A stretch of 32,000 bases of DNA from Candidatus Iainarchaeum sp. GTDB taxonomy: Archaea; Iainarchaeota; Iainarchaeia; Iainarchaeales; CSSED10-239. A program made the translations under genes and the position numbers. Below are positions 6,481 through 30,841 of this stretch, one piece after another. The notes under the pieces are model-generated. The model ran no database searches. It had not been told where the DNA came from and worked only from the letters and a program-made list of their open reading frames with translations. The stretch covers positions 120,001-152,000 of the forward strand of contig JAQVTI010000001.1 of the NCBI GenBank assembly GCA_028700115.1, given 5' to 3'. Every line of letters begins with the position of its first letter. The stretch's first letter is position 1.

Positions 6481-7989
6481 CTATTGGTTTTCTAAAATAA
6501 TTTGATATTGTTCATTCAAATATTCTGATTCAGAAGCATATTTATCCATAATTGGTAAAACAATTTTTTCTTGCCCTAAAGAATCTTTTAAACTAAATAA
6601 AAGTCTATGTGTTTCTAAATAAACTCCTTGTTCTTGAGCACATCTAGAAAATACAGCTGGGAAAATTGCAGAAGTTTCATGAACAACAAAATCTTTAATA
6701 ACAAGATATGCTTTATTTGTGTCCACATATTCCTCTATAAACTTTTCTTGAGTATCTTTTTCAAATAATGTACAATATGGACAATCATAATCTGTAAAAA
6801 CATAAACCCCAAAATTAGAATATTTATTTCCAATAACATAATCGTTTGAATTTTCTAAAACAGTAGAATCAATTAACTTATATACAAAATCAAGACCACT
6901 AGAAGAAACTAAATTAGGCATAACAAATGGATTTAAAAGATAACCTTTTGATTTTGTTTCTATAAATAATTGCTCAAAAAAACTTTGAAAATTTTGATCA
7001 TAAACATCATCTTCAAAAATATTTCCTTCAATATATATAGCTGGGATTGAATCTATTTGAGAACCTTCTATAATTTTTTTAGCATTATCAGATTCATAAG
7101 AAAGATAAATAGTTTCAAAAGAATCTAAAATATCTGTGAAAAATTCTTTAACATCTAAAGTTAAATTTTCTGAATTTTTTAAAGAATTTATAAATTCAAT
7201 TGTATTTTGTTTAGAAACAGCATTATTTTCATTTGTAATAATATATATTTTTGGAACAGAATTTACATCTGAAATAAAAGTATTATTATAATCAAAAGAA
7301 ATAATTGGATCATTTAAAGTAAAATCAATTTTTTCTTTAAAAGAATTATAATCAACATATCCTGGTAACAAATAACCATTTAAATATATTCCAGGAGTAC
7401 CTGTTATTCCTAAAACATTAGCAAGAGAAATATCTTCAGTAATTTTTTTTATAATATCTGCTTTTTCAAGATTTAAATTTGGATTTGAATAATCATTTTC
7501 TATAATACAAGCATCCATTAATTCTTTATTAATATTTAAATCTTTATAATATGGTTCTAAAACTTCTAATTGTGCAAACTTTATATCTCTAAAAATATTT
7601 GATTGAAGAGAAGTCACTCTTTCTTCAAATTCTTCTAAACTAAGATTTTCTACAATATTGTTATCTATTTGATTTTCATCTAAAAAAGAATTTTGATCAA
7701 TAGATGAAGAACTGTCAATATTTTTAGGATATAAAATAATTAAAATTACAATTGCAATAATTAATAAACCTAAAACAATAATTGTTGCAATATCTTTAGA
7801 TTTATATTTTTTAGTAGACTTTACTTTAGAAATCTTTTTTTTATCATTAGAAGACGCATCTTTCTTTTTAGAAACAATATTATTATCAGAAATAGAATTT
7901 TTCTTTTTTGAAATATTCTTATTTTCTTTAACTACAACCTTTTTTTGTAGTTTCTTTTTATTACTTTTTTTAGTTGCCAAAATAACCAC
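6481..7989 (-). CDS. Membrane-anchored thioredoxin-fold / DsbA-like thiol:disulfide oxidoreductase (multi-domain)
   Basis: About 65 aa of Lys-rich N-terminal tail, one hydrophobic TM helix (IATIIVLGLLIIAIVILIIL), then an extracytoplasmic part. That part has a DsbA-type cis-Pro loop GITGTPGIYLNG (about 7391-7410), a second IPAIYIEGN, and a CPYC redox motif (6772-6783). The start is uncertain. The ORF-track GTG lies inside an AAGGTGG Shine-Dalgarno-like sequence (about 7986-7992), so the TTG at 7978-7980 is a plausible start. Confidence 0.6.
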   Translation of the reverse strand: MVILATKKSNKKKLQKKVVVKENKNISKKKNSISDNNIVSKKKDASSNDKKKISKVKSTKKYKSKDIATIIVLGLLIIAIVILIILYPKNIDSSSSIDQNSFLDENQIDNNIVENLSLEEFEERVTSLQSNIFRDIKFAQLEVLEPYYKDLNINKELMDACIIENDYSNPNLNLEKADIIKKITEDISLANVLGITGTPGIYLNGYLLPGYVDYNSFKEKIDFTLNDPIISFDYNNTFISDVNSVPKIYIITNENNAVSKQNTIEFINSLKNSENLTLDVKEFFTDILDSFETIYLSYESDNAKKIIEGSQIDSIPAIYIEGNIFEDDVYDQNFQSFFEQLFIETKSKGYLLNPFVMPNLVSSSGLDFVYKLIDSTVLENSNDYVIGNKYSNFGVYVFTDYDCPYCTLFEKDTQEKFIEEYVDTNKAYLVIKDFVVHETSAIFPAVFSRCAQEQGVYLETHRLLFSLKDSLGQEKIVLPIMDKYASESEYLNEQYQIILENQ

Positions 7990-8053: not shown

Positions 8054-9070
8054 ATGTTTATAAACATACTTTATTTAATGTTTTCTTACAATATAAATAA
8101 TATGGATAAAGAAAAAATATTTAAAGACTTAAAAAAGAAACAATATGGTATTTTTGGAGATCATAGTGCGGTAGAAATTTGTGAATGGAATAAAAAAGCA
8201 TTAAGAGGAGAAGGAGTTTGCTATAAACAAAAATTTTATAATGCAGACTGTCACAGATGTGCACAAATTACCCCTGCTGTTATTTGGTGTCATCAAAATT
8301 GTATTTTTTGTTGGAGACCTGCAAATTATATGAAAGAACATATTCTTAAAGGAAAAATAAATGAACCAAAAGAAATAATAGATAATCTTTTTGAAGAAAG
8401 AAAAAAATTATTAAACGGATTTGGAGGAAATCCAAAAGTAGATAAAGAATTTTATAAAGAAGCATTAATACCATCTCATGTAGCAATATCTCTTGCAGGA
8501 GAACCAACTATATATCCTAAAATAGGAGAACTTATAAATGAACTTAAAAGCAGAGAAGAAATTAAAACAATTTTTTTAGTAACAAATGGATTAGAACCAA
8601 AAAGACTAAAAGAATTAAATGATAAAAATAATCTTCCAACACAATTATATTTATCTATAGAAGCATGTAATTATGATATGCATTTAAAAATAAACAGACC
8701 AAAAATAAAAGACTCTTGGCAAAGACTAAATGAAACAATAAAACTAATGCCAATTTTAAATTGTAGACGGGTAGTAAGATTTACTTTAATAAAAGGATTA
8801 AATGATTCTTTAGAATATATAGATGATTTTTTAAAAATGTTTGAAGAAACACAAACAGACTTTATAGAAATAAAATCATATATGTTTTTGGGGGAATCAA
8901 GAGAAAATTTAAAAAAAGAAAATATGCCAACACATACAGAAGTAGAAAACTATGCTAAAGAAATTGAAAAAAGATCTGAAAATTACTCTGTAATAGATAG
9001 ACAAGTTGCTTCCAGAATAGTACTTTTAAAAAATAAGAATAGCAAATATAGAAATTTCATAAAAGATTAA
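8054..9070 (+). CDS. taw1: tRNA 4-demethylwyosine synthase Taw1/TYW1 (radical SAM)
   Basis: Radical-SAM CxxxCxxC (CHQNCIFCWRP), preceded by the upstream Cys cluster typical of TYW1 (CYKQKFY..DCHRC). Also AISLAGEPTIYP and LVTNG. The likely start is the ATG at 8102 (MDKEKIF...). Confidence 0.85.
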   Translation: MFINILYLMFSYNINNMDKEKIFKDLKKKQYGIFGDHSAVEICEWNKKALRGEGVCYKQKFYNADCHRCAQITPAVIWCHQNCIFCWRPANYMKEHILKGKINEPKEIIDNLFEERKKLLNGFGGNPKVDKEFYKEALIPSHVAISLAGEPTIYPKIGELINELKSREEIKTIFLVTNGLEPKRLKELNDKNNLPTQLYLSIEACNYDMHLKINRPKIKDSWQRLNETIKLMPILNCRRVVRFTLIKGLNDSLEYIDDFLKMFEETQTDFIEIKSYMFLGESRENLKKENMPTHTEVENYAKEIEKRSENYSVIDRQVASRIVLLKNKNSKYRNFIKD

Positions 9071-9071
9071 T

Positions 9072-9935
9072 ATGGAAGAAAAATACAAACAAAAAATAAT
9101 AAAAGAAATAACAACAAATAAAACAATTTGTTTATTAGCACCTTCTTTTCCAGTAGATTTCAAATATCCAGATATAGTATATAAACTGAGACAAATTGGA
9201 TTTGATAAAATATTTGAATTAACATATGCGGCAAAAATAATTAACCAACATTATCATACAATAATAAAAAATGAAAACAAAAAACAATTTATAGCAGCAA
9301 ATTGCCCATGTACAATAACATATATAGAAAATCAATTTCCTGAATTTAAAAAAAACATAATAAACATTGCATCACCAATGGTAGTAATGGCAAGATTTTC
9401 AAAAAAAAAATATCCAAAAAAAAAATGTGTTTTTATAGGACCTTGCCTTGCTAAACAACAAGAAGCAAAAAAAAATAAAGAAGTAGATTTTGCAATAACA
9501 TTTAAAAACCTATATGAAATATTTAAATATTTTGAAAAAGAAAAAAAATTTAGAAAAATTAAAAAATCAAAAAAAAATTTGCAATTTGATTCATTATATA
9601 ATGATTATACAAAAATATATCCATTATCAGGAGCAGTTGCAAAAACAATGCATTATAAAAAAATACTTAAAAAAAATCAAATAATTGTTGCAGATGGGGT
9701 TATAAAAATTAAAGAAGCACTTGAAAAAATGAAAATTAATAAAAATATAAAATTCTTAGATGCACTTTTTTGTAAAGGAGGATGCATTGGAGGACCAGGA
9801 ATTATTTCTAAAAATAATTTAAATACAAAAATTAAAAAAATAAAAGAATATAGAAAAAATGCAAAAAAAGAAAAAATAGGAAAACATAAAGGATTATTTA
9901 AATATTCTAAAAATTTAAATGTAAAAAGAAAATAA
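9072..9935 (+). CDS. [FeFe]-hydrogenase H-domain-like protein (minimal, no accessory cluster domains)
   Basis: Three H-cluster signature blocks in canonical order: AANCPCT (Cys78/Cys80, nt 9303-9311), GPCLAKQQE (Cys125, Lys128, Glu131) and FCKGGCIGGPG (Cys234/Cys238). Also LLAPSFPV...LRQIGFDKIFELTYAA at the N-terminus. ATG is 1 nt after the taw1 stop. Confidence 0.7.
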   Translation: MEEKYKQKIIKEITTNKTICLLAPSFPVDFKYPDIVYKLRQIGFDKIFELTYAAKIINQHYHTIIKNENKKQFIAANCPCTITYIENQFPEFKKNIINIASPMVVMARFSKKKYPKKKCVFIGPCLAKQQEAKKNKEVDFAITFKNLYEIFKYFEKEKKFRKIKKSKKNLQFDSLYNDYTKIYPLSGAVAKTMHYKKILKKNQIIVADGVIKIKEALEKMKINKNIKFLDALFCKGGCIGGPGIISKNNLNTKIKKIKEYRKNAKKEKIGKHKGLFKYSKNLNVKRK

Positions 9936-9959
9936 AAAAATTAATTTCTTAAAAAGAAA

Positions 9960-11108
9960 TTAATCAACTAAACCATCACCAGTTACATTATATACAGCTT
10001 CACCATCTGGAAGAGAAGGAGAATCAACTAATTTTGCAATTCTTTTAGAACCAGTTCCTTTTCTTAAATAAACACGTGTTTTAGAAGCATGTTTTACAAC
10101 ATTCCCACCAATTGCATCTGTTGGGTCTCCAAACAATATATCTGGTCGTGACATAACTTGATTTGTAACAAAAACAACAACATTATAAAGTTCTGCAATC
10201 TTTTGTAAAAGTCTCATATGCTTATTGATTTTTTGTTGCCTATCTGATAATTGACCTCTACCAGTAAACTCAGATCTAAATTGACTAGTTAAAGAATCAA
10301 CAATTACAAGTTTAATATTTTTATCTTTAATTAAATCAACACCCTTTTCTGCAAGAAGCATTTGATGATCACTATTATATGCTCTTGCAACAAATATATT
10401 TTTCATAACCTTTTCAGGATCAAGTCCTCTATATTGAGCAATTTGAGACACTCTTTCAGGTCTAAAAGAATTTTCTGTATCAATATATAAAACAGCTCCA
10501 TCTAAACCACCTTGATCTTTAGGAAGTTGAGCAGTAACACATAATTGAAAACACCATTGACTTTTTCCAGAAGCAAACTTTCCATAAACTTCTGTAATTG
10601 ATTGACTTTCAATTCCACCACCTAATAACTCATCAAGACTTGAAGAACCAGTAGTTATTCTTGAAATTAATTTTCTTCTATCTAAAATTTTTTCAGCACT
10701 TTCAAAACCCATCTCAAGTGCATCTCTTGCAGCTTTAATTGCTTTTATAGCAGTACCTTCACCTAAAGATGCAACAGCAACAAGCTCCATAGGTGATGCA
10801 ACTGCAATAGATTCATAAGTTTCATAACCTGCGGCTTTTAATTTTTCTGCAGAAGTTGGACCAATACCAGGAAGATCAGTTATTTCTTTTGGTTTTATTT
10901 TTTCTTTTATAGGATCATCTATAATTTCATCATCTACATCTACTGGAGAATCTAAATTATCATAATCTTCTACACCTTCTTGATAACTATCATCTAAATT
11001 TTTATCTAAATTTATATTTTTTTTAGACATATTAAACACCTTCTTTTTATTTTTTATAAACTTTTTAAATTGCGTTTTATTTCTTGTGTTTCTCGCCTCA
11101 CAAATCAT
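9960..11108 (-). CDS. radA: DNA repair and recombination protein RadA
   Basis: HhH segment LPGIGPTSAEKLKAAGY, Walker A GKFASGKSQ, Walker B LVIVDS, and the rest of the RadA/Rad51 core. The probable true start is the ATG at 11028-11030 (MSKKNINL...), preceded by GAAGGTG at a 6-nt spacing. The ORF-track N-terminal 26 aa are probably not coding. Confidence 0.95.
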   Translation of the reverse strand: MICEARNTRNKTQFKKFIKNKKKVFNMSKKNINLDKNLDDSYQEGVEDYDNLDSPVDVDDEIIDDPIKEKIKPKEITDLPGIGPTSAEKLKAAGYETYESIAVASPMELVAVASLGEGTAIKAIKAARDALEMGFESAEKILDRRKLISRITTGSSSLDELLGGGIESQSITEVYGKFASGKSQWCFQLCVTAQLPKDQGGLDGAVLYIDTENSFRPERVSQIAQYRGLDPEKVMKNIFVARAYNSDHQMLLAEKGVDLIKDKNIKLVIVDSLTSQFRSEFTGRGQLSDRQQKINKHMRLLQKIAELYNVVVFVTNQVMSRPDILFGDPTDAIGGNVVKHASKTRVYLRKGTGSKRIAKLVDSPSLPDGEAVYNVTGDGLVD

Positions 11109-15555: not shown

Positions 15556-16701
15556 ATGAAACAAATTTATTTAGATTATGCTGCTACTACACCTGTAGTT
15601 AAAGAAGTATATGATGAAATGAAAGATTATTTTTTAAAAAATTATGGAAATACATCTAGTCTTCATATACTTGGACAAAATGCAGATGAAAAAGTAGAAA
15701 AAGTAAGAGAAAAAATTAAACAAAAATTAAATGCAAAAGATCACAAAGTAATTTTTACTTCAGGAGGAACAGAAAGTAATAACTTAGCTATTAAAGGATT
15801 AGTTTATGCAAACAAAGAAAAAAAACATATAATTATTTCAAAAATAGAACATGATTGTATTTTAAAAACTGCAAAATTTTTAGAAAAACAAGGATATGAA
15901 GTCACATATTTAAATGTTGATAAAGAAGGTTTTATTGATTTAAAACAATTAGAAAAATCTATTAAAAAAGAAACTATATTAGTTTCAATAATGCACGCAA
16001 ACAATGAAATAGGAACTTTGCAAAATCTTAAAGAAATTGGAAAAATTTGTAAAGAAAAAAAGGTTTTATTTCATACAGATGCTTGTCAAAGTTTTACAAA
16101 AGAAAAAATAGATTTAGAAGAATTTAATATAGACTTGATTACAATAAATGCACATAAAATTTATGGCCCTAAAGGAATTGGAGCATTAGTTATTAAAAAT
16201 GGAATTAAACTAACCCCTTTATTACATGGAGGGGGACACGAATATGGTTTTAGAAGTGGAACTTTAAATGTACCTGCTATTATTGGCTTTGGAAAAGCAA
16301 TAGATGTAATTTCTAAAGAAGATATTAAAAAAATGATCGATTTAAGAAATTACATGATTAAAGAAATTTTAAAAAAAATACCAACTTCTAAACTAAATGG
16401 ACCTACAGAAAATAGACTTTGTAATAATTTAAATTTTTTATTTAATTATATAGAAGGAGAATCAATTCTTTTACAATTAGATATGGAAGGAATATGTATT
16501 TCAACAGGATCTGCATGTTCATCAAATACACTTGAAACAAACCACGTAGCAAATGCTATTGGAATACCAAAAGATAAGGCAAATGGAATTATAAGGATAT
16601 CTTTAGGAATAGAAACAACTAAAGAAGAAACAGATATTTTTATTGAAAAATTAATTAAAATTGTAAAAAGACTTACAGACATGTCTCCTCTTACAAAATA
16701 A
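15556..16701 (+). CDS. iscS: Cysteine desulfurase (IscS/NifS class I)
   Basis: YLDYAATTP, FTSGGTESNN, the PLP-lysine region INAHKIYGPKGIGAL, RSGTLNVP, and the active-site loop STGSACSS. Confidence 0.93.
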   Translation: MKQIYLDYAATTPVVKEVYDEMKDYFLKNYGNTSSLHILGQNADEKVEKVREKIKQKLNAKDHKVIFTSGGTESNNLAIKGLVYANKEKKHIIISKIEHDCILKTAKFLEKQGYEVTYLNVDKEGFIDLKQLEKSIKKETILVSIMHANNEIGTLQNLKEIGKICKEKKVLFHTDACQSFTKEKIDLEEFNIDLITINAHKIYGPKGIGALVIKNGIKLTPLLHGGGHEYGFRSGTLNVPAIIGFGKAIDVISKEDIKKMIDLRNYMIKEILKKIPTSKLNGPTENRLCNNLNFLFNYIEGESILLQLDMEGICISTGSACSSNTLETNHVANAIGIPKDKANGIIRISLGIETTKEETDIFIEKLIKIVKRLTDMSPLTK

Positions 16702-16720
16702 GCTTTAAAGAAAATTAATT

Positions 16721-17179
16721 ATGCAAAATATAAAATATTCTAAAAAAGTTAAAGAACATTTTCTACATCCACACAATATGGGTAAAATAAAAAATGCAGA
16801 TGGTATTGGAAAACTTGGAAACCCAGCTTGTGGGGATGTAATGTATATTTATTTAAAAATTATAAAAAAAAATGAAAAAGAAATAATTAAAGATATTAAA
16901 TTTCAAACAATGGGATGTGCAGCTGCAATATCAACATCTTCAATGATTACAGATATAGTAAAAGGAAAAACTTTAGAAGAAGCTTTTAAAATAACTAACA
17001 AAGATGTTGCAAAAGAATTAGATGGATTACCACCAATAAAAATGCATTGTTCTAATCTTGCTGCAGATGTTTTAAAAGAAGCAATAAAAGACTATTATAA
17101 TAAACAAAAAAATAGAAAAATAAAATATGAAAAAACAGCATGTTATAAATGTTGTGATTCTAAAAAAGAAATGGATTGA
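16721..17179 (+). CDS. iscU: Fe-S cluster scaffold IscU/NifU N-terminal-domain protein
   Basis: Three cluster-ligand Cys motifs: GNPACGDVM, FQTMGCAAAISTSS and KMHCSNLAADVLKEAI. Extra C-terminal tail with CYKCC. Confidence 0.92.
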   Translation: MQNIKYSKKVKEHFLHPHNMGKIKNADGIGKLGNPACGDVMYIYLKIIKKNEKEIIKDIKFQTMGCAAAISTSSMITDIVKGKTLEEAFKITNKDVAKELDGLPPIKMHCSNLAADVLKEAIKDYYNKQKNRKIKYEKTACYKCCDSKKEMD

Positions 17180-17442: not shown

Positions 17443-18792
17443 TTAAATAAATTTTAAAATATCAGATAAATCTTTTGGATCTTTAAAACAAATAACATTA
17501 TTTTTTTCTAAAGTTTCTAAAAAAATATTTGTTTGAAAACCACCAATTGCTAAAACAAATATTGGTTTCTTACTTTTTTTTCTAATATTTATAATTTCAA
17601 TTAAAATATCTTGATTAATAGTAGATAATTGAAATAAAAATAATAAAATTAAACAAGAAATATTTTTATCATTTAAACAAATATTTATAGTTTTTATAAA
17701 TCTAAAATTATCACAATCTCCAGTAAGATCTAAAGGATTTTTAATAACAGCATAACTTGGAACAATTTTTTTAATTTTTTCAAAAGACTTTTTTGAAATT
17801 GAAGGTAAATTAAAACCATTAAAATCTAATTGATCAGAAGTTAAAACTCCAAACCCACCACCATTTGTAATTATTTGGATATTAGAAAGATCTAAATAAT
17901 CATAATTTGAAAAAACTTTTGCAAGAGAAAACATTTCTGAAATAGAATTAACTAGATATGCCCCAGATTGTTTACAAGCAGATTTAAAAACATCAAAAGA
18001 CCCAGCAATTGCAGCTGTATGTGACGTTGCTGCAACAATTCCTTTATTTGATATTCCTCCTTTTAAGATAATTATTTTTTTAGACTTTGATACTTTTTTT
18101 AAAGTTTTTAAAAAAAGATTACCATCTTTAATTCCTTCAATATAACATAAAATAATTTTAGTATTTTTCTCATTTTCTAAACTTAATAATAAATCAGATT
18201 CAGAAATATCTAAAGAATTACCATATGAAAAAAATTTACTAACACCTATATTTTCAAAATTAGCTCTATCTAAAAAAGATAAACCTAAAGCACCAGATTG
18301 AGATATCAAAGATACATTCCCTTTTTGTGGGAATTTAACTTCAGAAGAAATAAATGAAGCATTTAAATTATTATATAGATCTACATACCCAAGGCAATTT
18401 GGACCTAAAAGATTAATTTTATTTTTATCTAAGATATTTTTTAAATCTAAAGATAATTGTTTATTTCCAATTTCTAAAAAACCAGATGAAATTAAAATAA
18501 TATTTTTACAAGTTGTTTTAGATATATCTTTAATTACATCTAAAATAAGATTATGAGAAATGGCAATAATTACTATATCTATTTGTTTATTAATATCTAA
18601 AATTGACGAAAAAACTTTTTTATTAAAAATATATTTCCCAGAAAGTCTTGGATTTACATAAAAAACATCTTTTTTAAAAAAAGAAAGATTTTTAGAAATA
18701 GTATAACCTATACTATTTTCTTTATCAGAAGCACCTATTAAACAAATAGAAGACACATTATAAAAAGTATTTAAATTTTTCATATTTTTCAA
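17443..18792 (-). CDS. acdA: ADP-forming acetyl-CoA synthetase alpha-type subunit (CoA-binding + CoA-ligase domains)
   Basis: CoA-binding start ICLIGASDKENSIGY, then GPNCLGY, VSLISQSGALG, and the phospho-His loop ATSHTAAIAGS. Length of 449 aa fits the alpha subunit. No ATP-grasp beta subunit is adjacent. Confidence 0.8.
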   Translation of the reverse strand: MKNMKNLNTFYNVSSICLIGASDKENSIGYTISKNLSFFKKDVFYVNPRLSGKYIFNKKVFSSILDINKQIDIVIIAISHNLILDVIKDISKTTCKNIILISSGFLEIGNKQLSLDLKNILDKNKINLLGPNCLGYVDLYNNLNASFISSEVKFPQKGNVSLISQSGALGLSFLDRANFENIGVSKFFSYGNSLDISESDLLLSLENEKNTKIILCYIEGIKDGNLFLKTLKKVSKSKKIIILKGGISNKGIVAATSHTAAIAGSFDVFKSACKQSGAYLVNSISEMFSLAKVFSNYDYLDLSNIQIITNGGGFGVLTSDQLDFNGFNLPSISKKSFEKIKKIVPSYAVIKNPLDLTGDCDNFRFIKTINICLNDKNISCLILLFLFQLSTINQDILIEIINIRKKSKKPIFVLAIGGFQTNIFLETLEKNNVICFKDPKDLSDILKFI

Positions 18793-18935: not shown

Positions 18936-19502
18936 ATGAATCAAAAAAGTGAAATAATATTTTATGGAAGAGGTGGACTTGGAGCAAAAACAGCAGCACA
19001 AATTCTTGCAGAAGCAGCAAATATAGAAGAAAAAAATATCCAAGCTTTTCCAGAATATGGTCCAGAAAGAAGAGGAGCACCTGTTAGATCTTTTGTTAGA
19101 ATATCAGATAAACATATAAGAGTGCATGAACCAATTTTAAATCCAGACTACATAGTTGTAATTGATTCAAACTTATTTGATGTTATTGAAAATTTAAAAG
19201 AATTTAATGGAACTTATATAATTAATACAAATAAACCTAAAGATTATTTTAAAAAAATTCTTAAAAATAAAAAATTTATTTTAATAGATGGAACTAAGAT
19301 TGCTTTAGAAAATCTAAAAATAAATAATCCAAATATAGTTTTGATTGGAGCTTTAATTAAACAAAGTAAAATTATTAAATTAAGTTCTGTTGAAAAAATA
19401 ATTGAAGAAGAATTTACAAAAAAAGGAAAAGAATATTTTATTAAGCCTAATTTAAAATGTTTAAATGAAGGTTATAATTATAATTTTAAAAAGAAAAAAT
19501 AA
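18936..19502 (+). CDS. porC: Pyruvate:ferredoxin oxidoreductase gamma subunit
   Basis: GRGGLGAKTAAQILAEAA...FPEYGPERRGAPV is the POR/KOR gamma signature. First gene of a gamma-delta-alpha-beta operon. Confidence 0.9.
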   Translation: MNQKSEIIFYGRGGLGAKTAAQILAEAANIEEKNIQAFPEYGPERRGAPVRSFVRISDKHIRVHEPILNPDYIVVIDSNLFDVIENLKEFNGTYIINTNKPKDYFKKILKNKKFILIDGTKIALENLKINNPNIVLIGALIKQSKIIKLSSVEKIIEEEFTKKGKEYFIKPNLKCLNEGYNYNFKKKK

Positions 19503-19524
19503 ATAAATTTAGGATAAAATAAAT

Positions 19525-19839
19525 ATGGAAAATAAAAAAAAATCTAAAGAACTACCAATTGGAAGTATACTTCCAGGAGGAACTTCAACTAAAAACAAAA
19601 CAGGTTCTTGGAAAGATAAAGTTCCTGTTTGGGATGAAAAAAAATGTATTCATTGTATGATATGTTATAATAAATGCCCAGAAAACTGTATTCTTGCACA
19701 AGTTAAAGCAGGAAAAATTAAAAGAACAAAAACAGATTTAGAATACTGCAAAGGTTGTGGAATTTGTGCAAAGGTTTGTCCAGTTGGAGCAATAACTATG
19801 AAAGATGCAAGTGAAGTTGAAAAAGAAAATAAAAAATGA
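19525..19839 (+). CDS. porD: Pyruvate:ferredoxin oxidoreductase delta subunit (2x[4Fe-4S] ferredoxin-like)
   Basis: Two CxxCxxCxxxCP motifs (CIHCMICYNKCP and CKGCGICAKVCP). About 100 aa. Located between gamma and alpha. Confidence 0.92.
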   Translation: MENKKKSKELPIGSILPGGTSTKNKTGSWKDKVPVWDEKKCIHCMICYNKCPENCILAQVKAGKIKRTKTDLEYCKGCGICAKVCPVGAITMKDASEVEKENKK

Positions 19840-19852
19840 ATTTGTGAAAAAT
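19839..19852 (+). promoter_or_regulatory. Conserved translation-initiation region AATTTGTGAAAAAT upstream of porA
   Basis: A 14-nt string identical to the one at 21020-21033 upstream of porB. It contains GTGA (complementary to the archaeal anti-SD ...UCACCUCC) 7-10 nt before the ATG at 19854. Confidence 0.4.
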
Positions 19853-19853
19853 T

Positions 19854-21014
19854 ATGAAAAATAAAAAAATGGCATTAACAGGTGGAGAAGCAATCTCATA
19901 TGCTTTAAAACAAATTAATCCAGATGTTGTGGCGATGTATCCAATAACTCCACAAACTCCTATTATTGAAAGATATTCAAAATATGTTGCAGATGGAGAA
20001 GTAGATACTGAACTAATTAGAGTTGAATCAGAACACTCTGCACTTTCAGCCACAATCGGAGCTGCTGCTTCAGGGTCTCGTGCAGTTACAGCAACAGCTT
20101 CTCAAGGTTTACTTTATATGTTTGAAGTTTTATCTGTTGCTTCAGGACTAAGACTTCCAATTGTTATGCCTGTTGTAAATAGAGCAATATCTTCTCCAAT
20201 AAACATACACTGCGATCATTCAGATTCAATGTCTGCAATTGATCAAGGTTGGATGCAAGTATATTGTCAAAATGCACAAGAAAGTTATGAAATGACTTTA
20301 TTTGCAACTAAGCTTGCAGAAAAAGTAAACTTACCTATTATGGTTTGTCAAGATGGATTTATAACTTCCCATAATCTAGAAAACATAGAAGTTTTTAATG
20401 ATAATAAAGTTAAAAAATTTATTGAGGACTACAAACCAGCATATAATTTATTAGATGTAGATAAACCTATATCAATTGGACCTTTAGCCTTAACAGATTA
20501 TTATTTTGAAATAAGAGCACAATTATTTGAAGCTTTTTCAAAAATTAAAAAAGAATTTAAAGAAATTTCAAATGAGTTTAAAGAAACTTTTGACATGAAA
20601 ATTAATTTTTTAGAAAAATATAAATCAAATGATGCAGAAATTATTTTTATATGCTTAAGCTCAACTGCTGAAAGTATAAAAGATGTAATTGATACTTATA
20701 GAGATAATGGTTATAAGGTAGGACTTGTAAGACCAGTTTTATTTAGACCATTTTTTTATGAAGAATATGCAAAAGAATTAGAAAATGCAAAAACAGTAGT
20801 TGTTTTAGATAGATCTGAAGGTCCAGGAAGCCATGCACCTTTGTTTAAAGACATAGTTATTTCTTTAACAAACATAGAAAAAAGACCAGAAGTTTTTTCT
20901 TTTGTTTATGGACTTGGTGGAAGAGAGATTTATCAAAAAGATATATGTAAATTATTAGATACTTTAATCTCTGGTAAGCTTCCAAAAAGTAAATATATTG
21001 GACTTAGAGAATAA
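19854..21014 (+). CDS. porA: Pyruvate:ferredoxin oxidoreductase alpha subunit
   Basis: ALTGGEAISYALKQINPDVVAMYPITPQTPIIE, ESEHSALSATIGAAASGSRAVTATASQGLLYM and GLGGREI are typical PorA/2-oxoacid:Fd oxidoreductase alpha sequences. Confidence 0.92.
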   Translation: MKNKKMALTGGEAISYALKQINPDVVAMYPITPQTPIIERYSKYVADGEVDTELIRVESEHSALSATIGAAASGSRAVTATASQGLLYMFEVLSVASGLRLPIVMPVVNRAISSPINIHCDHSDSMSAIDQGWMQVYCQNAQESYEMTLFATKLAEKVNLPIMVCQDGFITSHNLENIEVFNDNKVKKFIEDYKPAYNLLDVDKPISIGPLALTDYYFEIRAQLFEAFSKIKKEFKEISNEFKETFDMKINFLEKYKSNDAEIIFICLSSTAESIKDVIDTYRDNGYKVGLVRPVLFRPFFYEEYAKELENAKTVVVLDRSEGPGSHAPLFKDIVISLTNIEKRPEVFSFVYGLGGREIYQKDICKLLDTLISGKLPKSKYIGLRE

Positions 21015-23469
21015 TTTTAAATTTGTGAAAAATATGAATAATTCAGAACTTGCAATAAAGATTAATGAAAATAAAAAATTAGTTCCAGGACATAGAACAT
21101 GTGCAGGATGCCCTATTGCTGTGATATTAAGAACAGCACTTGCTTCAACTGATAAAAAAATAGTTGTAGCTTCAGCTACTTCTTGTGCAGAAGTAACTAC
21201 TACAATATATCCTTATACATCTTGGAATGTTCCTTGGATGCATTCTGTTTTTGCAAATGCAGCTGCAACTATTTCAGGAATTGAAAGTTCTTATAAAGCT
21301 TTAAAGAAAAAAGGCAAAATAAAAAAAGATATTAGATTTTTAGCTTTTGGTGGAGATGGTGGATGTTACATTCCAAAAACAAAAATATTAACTACAGAAG
21401 GTTTTAAAAATGTAGAAAAAATAACTACAAAAGATTTAATTTGGTCAATAAATCCAAAAAATAAAACTTTAGAAAAATCAAAAATAAAAAAAATGCATAA
21501 ATATAATTATAATGAAAAAATAATTTCTGTAAATCACAATTTTGTACATTTTGATGTATCTTTACAACACAACATTCCAATTTATAATAAATTAAATAAC
21601 AAAATAGAAGCTATTAAAGCACATGAATTATTAAATTATGGTAGAAGTGATAAAATAAATATAATAACAGGTGATTTAAACTGGAAAGGTAAAAATAAAA
21701 AATATTTTGAATTACCAAAAATTAAATACAACAAAAATTCAAATAATAAAAAGGACATACCTAAAATAAATATGAAAATTTGGTTAGAATTTTTTGGATA
21801 TTGGATATCTGAAGGACACCTTTCAAAACATAATAGTAAAAGAAATATATACAACACTTTTATATCTCAAACAAAAAAAGCAACTATTAAAAAAATAGAT
21901 AAATGCTTAAAACAAACTAAAATAAATTATTGGTATAATAAAGATAGATTTTGTATAAGTAATCAAAAATTATGGGTATATTTAGAACAATTTGGAAAAG
22001 CAAAAGACAAATATATTCCTCAAGAATTTAAAGAATTATCAAAAGACTATTTACAAATATTATTAAATTCATTAATGGAAGGAGACGGCACAATAATTAA
22101 AAGACTTAAAAGCACAGCTTATTCTTATAGTACAATTTCAAAAAAATTAAAAGACGATGTAATTGAAATTGCACTTAAATTAGGATATAGAGTGCATTTA
22201 GATGAAAGAACTAGAAAAAACAGAAAAGAATACAGTATATCTTTTTCAAATTACAAACCAACAAGATTAGCAAACCTAAGAAAAAAACACATCACAAATT
22301 ATAATTATAAAGGAAAAATATATTGTCCAGAATTAGAAAAAAACCACATCATGGTTATTGAAAAAGATGGGCGAATAAGTTTAAATATGAATAGTTTCGA
22401 CATTGGACTTCAAAGTCTATCAGGAGCATTAGAAAGAGGACATGATTTTACATATATATGTTATACAAACGAAGGATATATGAATTGTTTATCTACAGAT
22501 TCACTAATTATGACTGAATCAGGATTAAAACAAATTACAGAAATTAAAAAAGGAGAAAAAGTTTGGGCTTTTGATCAAAAAACATATCAACCTGTTTTAA
22601 AAAAATGCACAGGTGTATTTGATAATGGTAGAAAAAAAGTATATGAAATTGAAACTATACATCAAAATATAAAAGCAACATCTAATCATCCGTTCTTAGT
22701 ATTAAAAAGAAATAAAAATAAAGAAAATGAATTTGTTTGGAAAACAGTTACAGAACTTAAAAAAGATGACGAAATTGTAACTCTTAAAAAGAAATTTTAT
22801 AAAAACTTAGATATAAATAAAAATCTAAAAAATGATTATAAAATACAAAATAATCATTATTTTATAATAAGAAAAATAAAAAATATAATTCCTAGAAAAA
22901 TAGAACAAACATTAGATTTAAGAGTTGAAGGAGAACACAATTTTATTGCAAATGGAATTGTTGTTCATAACACAGGAAATCAGAGATCTTCAGCAACACC
23001 TTATGGAGCATCAACAACTACAACTCCTTCTGGAAAAGTTTCTTTTGGTAAAGAAAAATTCCAAAAAGATCTTGCACAAATTATAATTGCACACAACATA
23101 CCTTATGTGGCAACTGCAAATCCAGAATTCCAAATTGATATGTATGAAAAAATGAAAAAAGCTTTTGAAACAAAAGGACCTTCATTTATTTTAATTTTTG
23201 CAGCATGCCCTACAAACATGAAAGCAGATCCATCAGAGACATTTACAATTAGTAAAATGGCTACTGAGACAAATTACTTCCCACTTTATGAATATGAGAA
23301 TAGAAAATATAAAATTAATTATAAACCTTTTAAAAAAGTTCCAATTGAAGAATTTTTAAAACTACAAACAAAATTTAGAGAAGTTTTAAAAGATAAAAAA
23401 GAAATTAAAATCATACAAGAACACGTAGATGAAAAATGGAATAGTATTCTAAAAAAGGAAGAAAAATAA
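20998..23469 (+). CDS. porB: Pyruvate:ferredoxin oxidoreductase beta subunit (ThDP-binding) precursor carrying two inteins
   Basis: Exteins read [13 protein letters not shown]...LAFGGDGG | [31 protein letters not shown] | [19 protein letters not shown].... This is a normal PorB of about 306 aa counted from the ATG at 21034. The ORF is 823 aa because of two in-frame insertions with intein hallmarks. Confidence 0.92.
   Translation: [823 protein letters not shown]
21020..21033 (+). promoter_or_regulatory. Conserved translation-initiation region AATTTGTGAAAAAT upstream of porB
   Basis: 14/14 identical to 19839-19852 and immediately precedes the ATG at 21034. Supports 21034 as the real porB start rather than the TTG at 20998. 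Confidence 0.4.
21364..22392 (+). mobile_element. Intein 1 in PorB (343 aa, with LAGLIDADG homing-endonuclease domain)
   Basis: Begins with Cys ([14 protein letters not shown], block A) directly after GGDGG. Block B-like [10 protein letters not shown]. Two LAGLIDADG motifs ([10 protein letters not shown] and [11 protein letters not shown]). Block F-like [19 protein letters not shown]. Ends ...ISLNMN with a terminal Asn followed by a +1 Ser (22393). The penultimate residue is Met rather than the usual His. Confidence 0.85.
22486..22971 (+). mobile_element. Intein 2 in PorB (162-aa mini-intein, no endonuclease domain)
   Basis: Starts [13 protein letters not shown] (block A). TSNHPFLV matches the block B TxxH motif. 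[20 protein letters not shown] is a canonical block F/G ending in HN, followed by a +1 Thr (22972). Removing it restores YMN-TGNQRS. Confidence 0.9.
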
Positions 23470-23483
23470 AAAAGGTTTTAATT

Positions 23484-24191
23484 GTGCCAAACATCTCAAC
23501 ACATGCAAAAATAATTAAAGAAGTTTATTCTAAAAATAAAAAATTTAATTTAGATTATTTAGTATCTGGAAGTATATTTCCAGATTATTACTATTTTTTA
23601 AAATATCAAAAATATAATGACCCCACTAATTTACTACATTCTAAACTTGCAAAAAGATACTCAGAAAAACTAATTAAATCTGCAAAAAACAAAAAAGAAC
23701 TTTCTTTTGCAATAGGTGTTTATTCACACATTATAGTTGACCAAAAAGTTCATGCATATTTAAGAAAAAACAAACTTGAAAAAAACATAAATCACCTAGT
23801 AATTGAACATTTTTTAGAGATAAAACAACATACACCTGTTAACAAAATATTAATTTGTAAAAATTTAATTAAAAGAACTATTCCTAAAAAATATTATATA
23901 CATTTAAAAAAAATAAATTTATTTAATTCAATTAAATTTATTTTATTTAATAAAACTATATTTTTTTTAATAAAACAAAAATACATAAATAAAAAAAGAT
24001 CTAAGAAAAAAAGTATATGGAATTTAATTTTAAGAATAGGTTATAAAAGACCACTTAAAAGAGTAGAGTTTACAGATATAGAAAAAATAGTAAATCCTAA
24101 TTTTAAATTAAAAAAACATATAAAAAATATAGAAAAAGAAATAAATTTATCTAAAAAAGAAATAATTAAAAAAATCAAAGAATTAATTTAA
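23484..24191 (+). CDS. Hypothetical protein, possibly a zinc-dependent phospholipase C-like (His/Asp-rich) fold
   Basis: GTG start 14 nt after porB. N-terminal half has spaced His/Asp residues (MPNISTHAKII, FPDYYY, LLHS, YSHIIVDQKVHAYL, NHLVIEHF) reminiscent of the Zn_dep_PLPC family. C-terminal half is Lys-rich and hydrophobic. The assignment is weak. Confidence 0.4.
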   Translation: MPNISTHAKIIKEVYSKNKKFNLDYLVSGSIFPDYYYFLKYQKYNDPTNLLHSKLAKRYSEKLIKSAKNKKELSFAIGVYSHIIVDQKVHAYLRKNKLEKNINHLVIEHFLEIKQHTPVNKILICKNLIKRTIPKKYYIHLKKINLFNSIKFILFNKTIFFLIKQKYINKKRSKKKSIWNLILRIGYKRPLKRVEFTDIEKIVNPNFKLKKHIKNIEKEINLSKKEIIKKIKELI

Positions 24192-25370
24192 TAATTCTTT
24201 AACATCTCTAATCATTTGTAATTCTTCATTTGTTGGAATAACTAAAACTTTAATTAAACTATCTTCTGATGAAATTATTAATTCATTTGAATTATTTTTA
24301 CTTTCATCTAACTTAAGTCCTAAAAAACTAAAATGATCTAAAACAAGTTTTCTTAAAAAAGGAGAATGCTCTCCAACTCCTCCTGTAAAAACAATTACAT
24401 TTATTCCTTTCATCTCAGAAATGTATGCACCAATTATTTTAATTATTCTATTTACTAAAATATCATTTGCAAGAGTACAATCTTTACAACCTTTAATTGC
24501 ATTTTCTTCAATATACCTATGATCACTTGATTGCTTAGATATTCCTAAAAGCCCAGATTGTTTATTTATTAATTTTTTAATATCTTCTTTAGAATAACCA
24601 TTTTCTAATAAAAATAAAATTATTTCAGGATCAAAACTTCCAGATCTAGTTCCCATTGGAAGACCATCTAAAGGAGTAAAACCCATAGAAGTATCAAAAC
24701 TTTTACCATTTTTAATAGCACATATACTTTGACCATTCCCTAAATGACATGTAATTATATTTATTGAATCATAATCTTTTTCTAAAATCTCACATGCTTT
24801 TCTTGAAACAAACTTATGAGAGGATCCATGAAAACCATAACTTCTAATTTTAAATTTTTCATAAAGCTCTATTGGAAGAGCATATAAATAATTTTCTAAA
24901 GGTATAGTTGAATGGAATGCTGTATCAAAAACCCCAAAATGCTTTGTAGATTCTGGCAAATGACCTTTTAAAATTTCAACACATTTTAAATTTACAGGAT
25001 TATGAAGCGGTGCTAAAAAATTATATTTTTTTAAATCTTCTAAAACCTCAGAAGTAAGCTCTGTTGTTTTATTATATTTTTCAGCTCCATGAACAATTCT
25101 ATGAACAACATAATTAATTTCAAAAAAAGAAGTAATAATATTATTTTCTATTAAAAAATCTAAAAGATTAGAAACAGCTAAATCATGTTCTAAAATATCA
25201 AACTCATCTTTTAATTTTTTATCATTAAATTTAATTTTTCTAAGACAAGTTCTACCAGAAACTCCAATTCCATCAAATTGTCCAACAATTAATGTTTTTT
25301 CATTTTCAAAATCGGCTAATTCAAATTTTAAAGAACTACTACCTGCATTAATTACTAAAATATTACTCAT
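24183..25370 (-). CDS. ackA: Acetate kinase
   Basis: ILVINAGSSSLKFEL N-terminus, VHRIVHGAE, APLHNP, FDTAFH, YGFHGSSH, ITCHLGNGQS, MGTRSG.DP and FTGGVGEHS make up the complete acetate/propionate kinase motif set. Confidence 0.93.
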   Translation of the reverse strand: MSNILVINAGSSSLKFELADFENEKTLIVGQFDGIGVSGRTCLRKIKFNDKKLKDEFDILEHDLAVSNLLDFLIENNIITSFFEINYVVHRIVHGAEKYNKTTELTSEVLEDLKKYNFLAPLHNPVNLKCVEILKGHLPESTKHFGVFDTAFHSTIPLENYLYALPIELYEKFKIRSYGFHGSSHKFVSRKACEILEKDYDSINIITCHLGNGQSICAIKNGKSFDTSMGFTPLDGLPMGTRSGSFDPEIILFLLENGYSKEDIKKLINKQSGLLGISKQSSDHRYIEENAIKGCKDCTLANDILVNRIIKIIGAYISEMKGINVIVFTGGVGEHSPFLRKLVLDHFSFLGLKLDESKNNSNELIISSEDSLIKVLVIPTNEELQMIRDVKELLN

Positions 25371-28696: not shown

Positions 28697-30841
28697 ATGT
28701 GTTCGATTGCAGGTAGCTTTAATTTAACTCAAAGCATCAAAAATTGTTATGAAATGAATGTTTTAATGCAAAAAAGAGGTCCTAACCACACATCTTTTGC
28801 ACACATCAAAGATAATAAAGTATATATTTATGAATATACAGATAGATTTGAACAAAACAATACAATAAGCCATAATTTACTTGCAATTGTAGGAAACATA
28901 TCTCAACCTATAAAATATAAAAACACATTAATTACATCTAATTGTGAGATATATAATTGGAAAGAAATTTGTAAAAAAGAAAAAATAAATGCAAGAAATG
29001 ACTCAGAGATGTTAATTAAACTTTTTGAGAAAGAAAAAGTAAATAAGAAAACTTTAGAAAAACTAGATGGAGCATATGCATTTTGTTTCTGGAAAGAAAA
29101 CAAAATTTATCTTGCAAGAGATATTTTAGGAGTAAAACCTTTATGGTTTTCATATGAGAACAAAAGTTTTTGTTTTGCATCAGAAAAAAAAGCCTTAGAA
29201 AAAATTGGACGAGAAAAAATAGAATTTTTAGATCCAAGAAAGATTTTAATTTATGATATTAATAAAAATCTAATTAACTATAAAAAAAGAGAATTTATAA
29301 AAATTAAAGAAAATAAAAATGGTTTAGAAAAAAATAAAAAAATAATTCAAGAAAAATTAGAACAAGCAATTATTAAAAGAATTCCAGAAAAAAAACTAGC
29401 ACTTCTTTTTAGTGGAGGAATAGATTCTACAATAATTGCAATGATTCTTAAAAAACACAAAATAGATTTTACAGCATACTTTGCACATCTTAAAGGATAT
29501 AATGAAAATAAAGATTTAGAATATGTTAGAGAGATTGCAAAAAAATATAAAATTAAATTAAAAATTAAAAGTTTAGATTATAAAGACTTAGAAAAAAATA
29601 TTAAACAAGTTGTAAAAACTATTGAATCAACTAACCCTATTAAAATAGGAGTTGGCTTACCTATTTATCTTGCAAGTAAACTTGCTTCAAAAGATAAAAA
29701 TAAAGTTATTTTTTCAGGACTTGGTTCTGATGAGATTTTTGCAGGATATAATAGATTTAAAGAATCTAAACATATTCAAAAAGACACACTTAATCTACTT
29801 TATCAAATACATGAAAATGATTTAAATAGAGACGACTCTCTTACAATGGAAAACAGTATTGAGTTAAGACTTCCTTTTTTAGATTTACCTTTAATTAAAG
29901 AAGTAATTGGAATTGAAGATAAACAAAAAATTAACTCTGAAGAAAATAAAATTATCTTAAGAGAGATTTCAAAAGAATATAGTCTAGATGAAAAATATTT
30001 TAAAAGAAAAAAAGTTGCTGCACAATATGGTTCTGGGTTTGATAAAGGAATAATTAAACTTTCAAAAGAAAATAAATTTAAATCAAAATCAGAATATCTA
30101 AAAACTTTTTTAGAAAAGCAGAATCTTAATTTAGGATGTTTATATTCTTCTGGAAAAGACTCTAATCTTTCTTTAAATATTCTAAAAAAACAAAATTATA
30201 AAATAAAATGTTTAATTTCTATTATTCCAGAAAACAAAGACTCATACATGTATCAAACTCCTGATTTAAAAATTTTAAAAGCACAATCAGAATGTATAGA
30301 AATACCTTTAGTTTTAGGAAAAACAAAAGGTGAAAAAGAAAAAGAATTAATTGATCTTAAAAAAGTAATTAAAAAAGCAAAAGATAAATACAATCTGCAA
30401 GGAATTGTCTCAGGTGCATTATTTAGTAACTACCAAAGAGAAAGAATTCAAAACATATGTAATGATTTAGGTTTAAGATTGTTTTCACCTCTATGGAATA
30501 TAAACCAAGAAAAAGAAGTTTTGAAATTAATAAAAGAAAAATTTGATTTTAGAATTGTTAAAATTGCTGGATATGGACTAAATAAAGATTGGTTTTTAAG
30601 AAAAATAGATTTAAAAGCTTTAGAAGAACTTAAAAAACTAAATAAGAAATATGGTTTCAATGTAGCAGGAGAAGGTGGAGAATTTGAAACTATTGTTTTA
30701 GACTCACCTGATTTTAAAAAAAAAATAAAAGTTATAGACTACAAGATAAATTTAGAAAATGAATTTACTGGTGAAATTGAAATTAAAAAAATAAAAATAG
30801 AAGAAAAAAGAAAAACTAATTCTAACAAGTACAACCAATAG
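28697..30841 (+). CDS. Fusion protein: glutamine-dependent asparagine synthetase-like enzyme (GATase II + PP-loop synthetase) + diphthine-ammonia ligase-like (Dph6/MJ0570-type PP-loop) domain
   Basis: N-terminus MCSIAG (Cys2 nucleophile, 28700-28702), NCEIYN, NDSE, LDGAYAF, LARDILGVKPLW, FASEKKAL. First PP-loop SGGIDS (29411-29428), GLGSDEIFAGY, RLPFLD. From about 30125 a second module: LYSSGKDS (30149-30163), SYMYQTP, GIVSGALFSNYQRERI, SPLW and AGEGGEFETIVLDSP (30671-30691), typical of Dph6/ATP_bind_4. One uninterrupted frame. Confidence 0.85.
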   Translation: MCSIAGSFNLTQSIKNCYEMNVLMQKRGPNHTSFAHIKDNKVYIYEYTDRFEQNNTISHNLLAIVGNISQPIKYKNTLITSNCEIYNWKEICKKEKINARNDSEMLIKLFEKEKVNKKTLEKLDGAYAFCFWKENKIYLARDILGVKPLWFSYENKSFCFASEKKALEKIGREKIEFLDPRKILIYDINKNLINYKKREFIKIKENKNGLEKNKKIIQEKLEQAIIKRIPEKKLALLFSGGIDSTIIAMILKKHKIDFTAYFAHLKGYNENKDLEYVREIAKKYKIKLKIKSLDYKDLEKNIKQVVKTIESTNPIKIGVGLPIYLASKLASKDKNKVIFSGLGSDEIFAGYNRFKESKHIQKDTLNLLYQIHENDLNRDDSLTMENSIELRLPFLDLPLIKEVIGIEDKQKINSEENKIILREISKEYSLDEKYFKRKKVAAQYGSGFDKGIIKLSKENKFKSKSEYLKTFLEKQNLNLGCLYSSGKDSNLSLNILKKQNYKIKCLISIIPENKDSYMYQTPDLKILKAQSECIEIPLVLGKTKGEKEKELIDLKKVIKKAKDKYNLQGIVSGALFSNYQRERIQNICNDLGLRLFSPLWNINQEKEVLKLIKEKFDFRIVKIAGYGLNKDWFLRKIDLKALEELKKLNKKYGFNVAGEGGEFETIVLDSPDFKKKIKVIDYKINLENEFTGEIEIKKIKIEEKRKTNSNKYNQ

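Follow-up and report, generated by a model that had tools for sequence, protein, structure and literature searches.

A probable group-E-type ultraminimal [FeFe] hydrogenase encoded next to TYW1 in an Iainarchaeota archaeon

The 32,000-nucleotide (nt) stretch of Candidatus Iainarchaeum DNA analysed here, referred to as the window, encodes a 287-residue protein composed of a single [FeFe]-hydrogenase catalytic domain (H-domain). The homology and fold of this protein, its conserved ligand and pocket residues, and the context of its gene are established below, and its membership in a family of H-domain-only proteins is essentially certain. The explanation that we favor, at a probability of about 0.6, is that it is a group-E-type ultraminimal [FeFe] hydrogenase from a DPANN archaeon of the Iainarchaeota, most likely turning electrons derived from pyruvate:ferredoxin oxidoreductase (POR) into H2.

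Group E was defined by Greening et al. (2024, Cell; PMC11216029) as ultraminimal [FeFe] hydrogenases that consist of the H-domain only and average 286 residues. The hosts are Iainarchaeota, Micrarchaeota, and Nanoarchaeota, and the proteins keep the ligand cysteines and have non-canonical proton-transfer residues. Ca. Forterrea multitransposorum is the source of Fm, a group E enzyme that contained 4.2 Fe per protein and one [4Fe4S] cluster. Upon addition of 2Fe-azadithiolate (2Fe-adt), it formed an H-cluster with well-defined states, as shown by Fourier-transform infrared spectroscopy, and its catalytic currents were bidirectional and favored H2 evolution, unlike those of a group C enzyme. The study placed group E as sister to the sensory group C and proposed an unknown alternative maturation pathway. 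It left open both the source of the 2Fe subcluster without HydEFG and the physiological partners, and its main text never mentions radical S-adenosylmethionine (SAM) enzymes, TYW1, or Patescibacteria (PMC11216029).

The find itself is ordinary, since the class was described in DPANN archaea and biochemically characterized in 2024; the gene contributes one more sequence to it. The exact protein is also already in NCBI, as MDD3177958.1 and MDD3975673.1 (100% identity), there named by domain only. The identical protein is encoded in the metagenome-assembled genome GCA_028691725.1, on contig JAQUYT010000002.1, which is labeled "Candidatus ainarchaeum", taken here as a form of Iainarchaeum. The comparative results may outweigh the gene, namely the abundance of the family in bacteria of the candidate phyla radiation (CPR) and the four radical-SAM families that adjoin the gene in three subclades. 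These neighbors are concrete, testable candidates for both the 2Fe-source and the partner questions left by the 2024 paper. The radical-SAM linkage, the sharing of the family between DPANN and CPR, and the atypical first motif of the window protein (Ala75/Cys80) are of most interest.

Fold and active-site residues

An earlier note on this DNA had read the protein as a DPANN-type ultraminimal [FeFe] hydrogenase, and had suggested a profile search for the H-domain and a structure prediction as checks. Both bear the reading out, as do the family profile, the taxonomy of the host, and what has been published on group E. The open reading frame (ORF) is as the note gave it.

9072-9935, + strand: H-domain-only [FeFe] hydrogenase gene, group-E-type; ATG start, 287 residues, PF02906

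In a Pfam search, PF02906 (Fe_hyd_lg_C) matches the protein with E=1.1e-40 and 140.3 bits against a cut-off of 22.1, far beyond chance. The match covers the full profile (positions 3-245 of 245) and residues 18-242, and is the sole domain in the protein. The H-domain begins at about residue 18 and no F-cluster (Fer4) domain was found N-terminal to it, as the note had claimed. In a single-sequence phmmer search, the protein matched CpI and further [FeFe] hydrogenases of solved structure at 1e-13; a family profile reached these and TmHydA at 1e-21 to 1e-22. An AlphaFold2 model built from a 40-sequence alignment is confident (pLDDT 92.2, pTM 0.90) and superposes on CpI-type H-domains. Its top Foldseek matches in the PDB are exclusively [FeFe]-hydrogenase H-domains, those of CbA5H, HydA1 of T. 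kivui (TkHydA1), and CpI. The best E-value is 3.5e-16, and the query-normalised TM scores are 0.72-0.78. Placement in group B1 or group A was rejected because the NCBIfam models score far under their cut-offs (140.9 bits against 450 and 72.5 against 406, respectively).

Size and architecture agree with group E: the protein has 287 residues, a single PF02906 domain, and no accessory clusters. The host agrees as well, being a DPANN archaeon of the Iainarchaeota; the window, of about 22% GC, carries archaeal genes for exosome subunits, SBDS, proteasome alpha, Pop5, ArgRS, RadA, and Topo VI in addition to TYW1. The features shared with group E enzymes such as Fm are an H-domain of about 286 residues with condensed loops, a predicted single [4Fe4S] cluster plus a 2Fe site, four ligand cysteines, non-canonical proton-transfer residues, and no HydEFG genes nearby; a position next to group C is suggested by the architecture of the nearest long relatives. 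The window protein is 42% identical to a homolog from the genus Forterrea (L048), which serves as a stand-in for the Fm sequence.

Residue equivalences were taken from alignments to CpI and TmHydA. Column counts refer to 120 relatives, the best 120 of 1147 found at E<=1e-5 in a clustered protein collection; all 120 are 258-328 residues long and contain PF02906 only. The sites considered are as follows.

9138-9146, + strand: Ala23-Pro24-Ser25, equivalent to CpI A230-P231-S232 by alignment to CpI and TmHydA; invariant in the family
9291-9311, + strand: motif 1, I74-A-A-N77-C78-P-C80, from alignments to CpI and column counts
9438-9464, + strand: motif 2, G123-P-C125-L-A-K128-Q-Q-E131, from alignments to CpI and TmHydA
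9765-9800, + strand: motif 3, L232-F-C234-K-G-G-C238-I-G-G-P-G, from alignments to CpI and TmHydA

All motifs quoted in the note are present, LLAPSFPV at residues 21-28, AANCPCT at 75-81, GPCLAKQQE at 123-131, and FCKGGCIGGPG at 233-243. The note had named Cys80, Cys125, Cys234, and Cys238 as the ligand set. The last three are equivalent to CpI C355, C499, and the bridging cysteine C503, but the first ligand is Cys78, which aligns with the [4Fe4S] ligand C300. Cys78, Cys125, Cys234, and Cys238 are invariant in the relatives (120/120), whereas Cys80 is found in 1/120, the window protein alone. Cys80 aligns with CpI G302, a position filled by Thr or Ser in nearly all relatives.

The 2Fe pocket is conserved. 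The Lys and Glu that the note recognized in motif 2 are Lys128 and Glu131, equivalent to CpI K358 and E361, and S101-P102 corresponds to S323-P324. CpI A230-P231-S232 makes backbone and side-chain contacts to the cyanide ligand of the 2Fe subcluster. K128, E131, and P24 are invariant among the 120 relatives, and K128, E131, A23-P24-S25, and S101-P102 are invariant over six H-domain-only subclades. This conservation, at an overall identity of 30-59%, argues for selection on a real 2Fe site.

The prototypical features of groups A and B are absent. Asn77 occupies the position of the proton relay C299, Gly123 replaces M353 and Leu232 replaces M497, the two Met replacements that the note had pointed out, and no Fer4 domain provides F-clusters. 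Over the H-domain-only subclades, the C299 position is Asn, Val, or Pro, the M353 position Gly, Ala, or Ser, the M497 position Leu, and the Q325 position Met. The relay cysteine is not shifted, as the note had supposed, but replaced by an Asn that is conserved in the subclade (117/120 relatives); Cys80 is private to the window protein. At position 75, Cys occurs in 115/120 relatives and Ala in the window protein. The CpI counterpart of this position is T297, which precedes the relay by two residues, and the Cys75 of the relatives might be part of an alternative proton path together with Asn77. Cys80 was rejected as a shifted relay or alternative ligand: it occurs in 1/120, and the closest relative, at 59% identity, shares Ala75 and has Ser80. 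Cys119 of the window protein lies in a column that is Cys in 7/120 relatives.

Relatives in DPANN archaea and CPR bacteria

An exhaustive search of cluster representatives returned 3824 sequences. The best matches are about 25-30 H-domain-only clusters, after which come proteins of 560-750 residues. By Pfam, the long relatives combine Fer4, the H-domain, and PF04060 with PAS, HisKA-HATPase, or sigma54-activator domains. This is the architecture of group C/D, which matches the published sister relationship to group C. The group C/D sensory proteins (HydS type, for example Thermotoga maritima HydS and TamHydS) are thus the nearest multidomain relatives of the window protein. Most of them share with it Gly at M353, Leu at M497, Met at Q325, and the lack of Cys at the C299 position. 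They differ in carrying an N-terminal Fer4 domain, a C-terminal PF04060 four-Cys motif, and PAS, kinase, or sigma54 output domains, none of which is found by Pfam in the window protein.

A species-level genome scan gave 527 relatives. H-domain-only copies are found in the DPANN lineages Iainarchaeota, Diapherotrites, Nanoarchaeia, Woesearchaeota, and Forterrea sp. (42% identity), and in the CPR lineages SR1/Absconditabacteria and Gracilibacteria (loci L005, L015-L044, L060, and L067), as well as Dojkabacteria/WS6, CPR3, Microgenomates, Levybacteria, Beckwithbacteria, and Berkelbacteria (L035, L037, L043, L045, L051, L061-L066, L073, and L075). No prior report of the CPR distribution was found in the literature searched, which is not proof of novelty.

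The SR1/Gracilibacteria copies are 45-51% identical to the window protein, as against 38-44% for Forterrea-type archaeal copies. This order of similarity implies, as far as identity values can tell, gene transfer between DPANN and CPR, that is, between domains among ultrasmall symbionts. Group E was described as archaeal, whereas the group recovered here is not exclusively so, with SR1/Gracilibacteria sequences as sister in a rough tree. Judged from these sequences, the CPR spread of the family conflicts with a purely archaeal group E.

The tree is a neighbor-joining tree of 224 columns without branch support. In it, the window protein belongs to an archaeal I-C-x-N-C-P subclade, whose sister is formed by SR1/Gracilibacteria sequences with the identical motif. 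Further groups are a Forterrea I-[AS]-S-V-C-P subclade and CPR subclades in which Pro takes the place of C299. The long group C/D-like proteins fall outside the H-domain-only superclade, which also holds the Forterrea sp. sequence.

The SR1/Gracilibacteria-type genes contain 2-11 in-frame TGA codons and hence use genetic code 25 (UGA = Gly). In 40/120 database proteins (among P0032-P0120), Trp stands at invariant Gly columns (G187, G236, G237, G241, and others), because code 25 genes were translated as if UGA encoded Trp. In the 4122-residue predicted protein P0122, H-domains and small-subunit domains each occur seven times, alongside flavodoxin and FAD-binding domains. This prediction, which has no relation to the window, probably arose by mis-joining of eukaryote-type hydrogenase genes in a tandem array.

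A probable fermentative role for the hydrogenase

The note had claimed that the window also encodes POR and acetate-forming, ATP-yielding enzymes, and had found no hydE, hydF, or hydG. Pfam confirms the enzymes, and annotation of the window ORFs with Pfam and NCBIfam gave no HydE, HydF, or HydG in the 32,000 nt. The relevant genes, with TYW1, are the following.

18936-23469, + strand: POR gamma (18936-19502), delta (19525-19839), alpha (19854-21014), and beta (20998-23469, with two apparent inteins); Pfam POR, Fer4, POR_N/PFOR_II, TPP_enzyme_C
17443-18792, - strand: alpha-type subunit of ADP-forming acyl-CoA synthetase (ACD), for ATP-yielding acetate formation; Pfam Succ_CoA_lig, CoA_binding_2, Ligase_CoA_2
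24183-25370, - strand: acetate kinase; Pfam Acetate_kinase E=2e-130
15556-17179, + strand: IscS-type cysteine desulfurase (15556-16701) and IscU/NifU_N scaffold (16721-17179) of Fe-S cluster assembly, by Pfam
8054-9070, + strand: TYW1 (4-demethylwyosine synthase), a radical-SAM enzyme with an auxiliary [4Fe4S] cluster; TIGR03972, 366.6 bits, cut-off 318

This Iainarchaeota genome thus places POR-based pyruvate fermentation alongside a 287-residue hydrogenase with no maturases nearby. According to the favored explanation, POR would be the source of low-potential electrons, which would be re-oxidised to H2 by the hydrogenase, and ATP would be gained through acyl-CoA synthetase and acetate kinase. 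The [4Fe-4S] subcluster would be coordinated by Cys78, Cys125, and Cys234 and linked to the 2Fe subcluster through Cys238 as the bridge, with Lys128, Glu131, Ala23-Pro24-Ser25, and Ser101-Pro102 forming the 2Fe pocket. The H-cluster would lie near the surface and, because there is no F-cluster relay, would exchange electrons directly with a docking partner. Protons would have to reach it by a non-canonical route, since the canonical pathway is absent (C299 to Asn77), as in the whole family. We infer hydrogenase activity in vivo from the invariant 2Fe pocket and, by analogy, from the biochemistry of a relative, the genus-level homolog of which is 42% identical. An electron partner and a HydEFG-free synthesis of the 2Fe subcluster are likewise presumed for the window protein.

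Direct docking has a parallel in the algal M1-type (group A1) enzyme CrHydA1, which is also a monomeric H-domain without F-clusters and docks ferredoxin directly. CrHydA1, however, has about 450 residues compared with 287, requires HydEFG, and retains the canonical proton pathway along with C299, M353, and M497. In a single-sequence comparison, it resembles the window protein only weakly (E about 1e-5).

Several observations weigh against this explanation. The window protein lacks both the proton-relay Cys and Cys75, which is present in 96% of its close relatives. Its gene adjoins neither POR nor a ferredoxin gene but sits 1 nt from TYW1, and apart from two in PorD the window has no ferredoxin-type Cys motifs. 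Maturase genes are missing from the window. HydEFG is also absent from most group E genomes, including the closed Forterrea genome, and Fm activity was measured solely after artificial maturation (PMC11216029); because of this absence, an H-cluster in vivo is unproven. Finally, the window protein belongs to a different subclade, in the unsupported tree, from the only Forterrea sequence compared: the I-C-x-N-C-P subclade has Asn at the C299 position, whereas the Forterrea subclade I-[AS]-S-V-C-P has Val.

Radical-SAM neighbors and possible alternative roles

The TYW1 stop codon lies 1 nt ahead of the hydrogenase ATG on the same strand, and for this reason the two genes are probably co-transcribed. 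In the archaeal subclade, TYW1 is directly upstream on the same strand in 11/11 loci, separated by 0-16 nt in those with gene calls, while the downstream neighbor varies: RadA in the window, NifU-SufD-SufB-SufC in some relatives, and a restriction-modification system in another. In the SR1/Gracilibacteria loci, a RimO/MiaB-family methylthiotransferase gene (TIGR00089, 280 bits, above the cut-off of 251) occurs on the same strand in 20/24, on the upstream side in part of them and on the downstream side in the rest. Downstream in 15/24, and directly so in 13 of these, is a radical-SAM gene that resembles HemW (TIGR00539, 165 bits, short of the cut-off of 205). The usual order is UvrB - RimO-like - hydrogenase - HemW-like, and the two radical-SAM genes flanking the hydrogenase gene recall hydE and hydG flanking hydA. 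In the Forterrea subclade, the neighbor is not TYW1 but a TIGR04084 radical SAM/SPASM gene, directly downstream in 10/13 loci (314 bits, cut-off 225), and a gene for a U32 (TrhP/UbiU-like) Fe-S protein is upstream in 7/13.

ORFs with a CxxxCxxC motif make up 48/120 immediate neighbors (40%) and 10/428 other ORFs in the same loci (2.3%), an odds ratio of 28 (Fisher p 3.5e-26) that is uncorrected for shared ancestry and reflects about 3-4 independent events. Such a neighbor is found in 11/11 archaeal, 20/24 SR1/Gracilibacteria, and 9/13 Forterrea loci, and in 0/18 loci of Dojkabacteria, Microgenomates, and other clades. Among the sampled long relatives, no fusion of an H-domain with a radical-SAM domain was found, only group C/D sensory architectures and P0122. 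No earlier report of a radical-SAM linkage of H-domain-only hydrogenases was found in the literature searched, which does not prove novelty.

The recurrent tight linkage is unexplained by a fermentative sink, and supports either a redox partnership or an alternative maturation. It is conceivable, and we propose it tentatively, that H-domain-only proteins and auxiliary-cluster radical-SAM enzymes form a module conserved in two domains of life (DPANN and CPR), the enzymes being TYW1, the RimO/MiaB-like and HemW-like pair, and a SPASM enzyme of the AF0577 type. The H-domain protein would exchange electrons with these enzymes as their dedicated partner and so connect radical-SAM chemistry with H2/H+, or the neighbor or neighbors would be part of a HydEFG-independent 2Fe route.

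As a rival to the fermentative explanation, the protein would be primarily the dedicated redox partner of auxiliary-cluster radical-SAM enzymes, TYW1 in this genome. In organisms that have few electron carriers, it would pass electrons to or from the Fe-S clusters of these enzymes, perhaps with coupling to H2/H+; bulk H2 production by fermentation would then be secondary or absent. The constancy of TYW1 beside a variable downstream gene, the frequencies of the RimO/MiaB-family, HemW-like, SPASM, and U32 neighbors, and the CxxxCxxC enrichment all speak for it. We nevertheless regard it as doubtful. The enrichment shrinks to a few independent events, the three other H-domain-only clades lack such neighbors altogether, no fusion of the two domains occurs among the sampled relatives, and unrelated genes often share operons in tiny genomes. 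In addition, H2 at environmental partial pressures would be a poor reductant for radical-SAM clusters, to judge from standard potentials.

The note had offered a divergent, non-catalytic relative of Nar1 as an alternative. Eukaryotic Nar1/NARFL is an H-domain homolog that acts in cytosolic Fe-S protein assembly, carries an extra N-terminal Cys cluster, and occurs in genomes without hydrogenase maturases. By this account, the window protein would hold no 2Fe subcluster in vivo and would serve as a [4Fe-4S] carrier, an insertion factor, or a low-potential electron carrier. The missing maturases fit such a role, and so do the Fe-S assembly genes nearby (IscS-IscU in the window, NifU-SufDBC directly downstream in relatives) and the conserved neighbors, all of which are Fe-S client enzymes. 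The alternative is disfavored, and we consider it unlikely. Only Cys20 precedes the H-domain motifs (84/120 relatives), with no Fer4 domain, so that a Nar1-type N-terminal Cys-cluster domain is absent. Lys128, Glu131, Ala23-Pro24-Ser25, and Ser101-Pro102 are kept throughout the family, and in CpI the Lys, Glu, Pro-Ser, and Ser-Pro residues are known only as 2Fe contacts. Fm, moreover, accepts 2Fe-adt and yields well-defined H-cluster states (PMC11216029).

A role as an independent H2 sensor, descended from the sensory group C/D proteins and signaling by protein-protein contact rather than turnover, would suit the PAS, histidine-kinase, and sigma54-activator fusions among the closest multidomain relatives and the shared M353, M497, and C299 replacements, but is very improbable given that the protein has no output domain, that no regulator gene is conserved beside it, and that the catalytic currents of Fm are biased to H2 evolution, unlike those of the group C enzyme (PMC11216029).

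Other features were noted around the hydrogenase genes. In several relatives of the archaeal subclade (L003, L004, L008, L009, L010, and L013), a convergent NifU-SufD-SufB-SufC cluster lies between the hydrogenase gene and radA. The window genome has IscS-IscU instead, 5.6 kb downstream of the hydrogenase gene and behind an ArsR-type regulator. On the other side, the divergent neighbor of TYW1 (6481-7989, - strand) encodes a 502-residue protein with two thioredoxin/DsbA-like regions, and is kept in nearly every archaeal-subclade locus that reaches that far. In Dojkabacteria/WS6, CPR3, and some Nanoarchaeia (L029, L035, L037, L043, L051, L055, L061, L071, and L088), the H-domain gene is flanked by a gene for a multi-pass membrane protein of about 180 residues without a Pfam or NCBIfam match, which may be the 'hyd6TM' that Greening et al. 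link to group A.

A scan for sigma-70 promoters and intrinsic terminators around the gene found no more sites than in shuffled sequence and is uninformative for an AT-rich archaeon. At 9941-9963, an 8-bp AT-rich inverted repeat, TTAATTTC...GAAATTAA, lies in the 24-nt spacer that separates the stop codons of the hydrogenase gene and radA, which are convergent. The repeat overlaps the radA stop and may mark a shared transcript end, although the terminator scan did not flag it.

Besides the ArsR and thioredoxin/DsbA-like proteins already named, the window encodes a PPDK/PEP-synthase-like enzyme and an Mre11-like phosphoesterase. The PorB ORF has 823 residues and contains two apparent inteins inside the TPP-binding GDG...NN motif (Pfam Intein_splicing, LAGLIDADG_3, and Hint). 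Their boundaries, taken from the translation alone, place intein 1 at about 21364-22395 and intein 2 at about 22486-22971, and read FGGDGG|C123...(LAGLIDADG endonuclease)...LNMN466|S467...YMN496|C497...VVHN658|T659. The exteins total about 317 residues, a normal PorB length. At 28697-30841, a 714-residue ORF fuses an AsnB-like glutamine amidotransferase/asparagine synthase region (about residues 53-359) to a diphthamide-synthase (Dph6-like) domain (residues 481-700).

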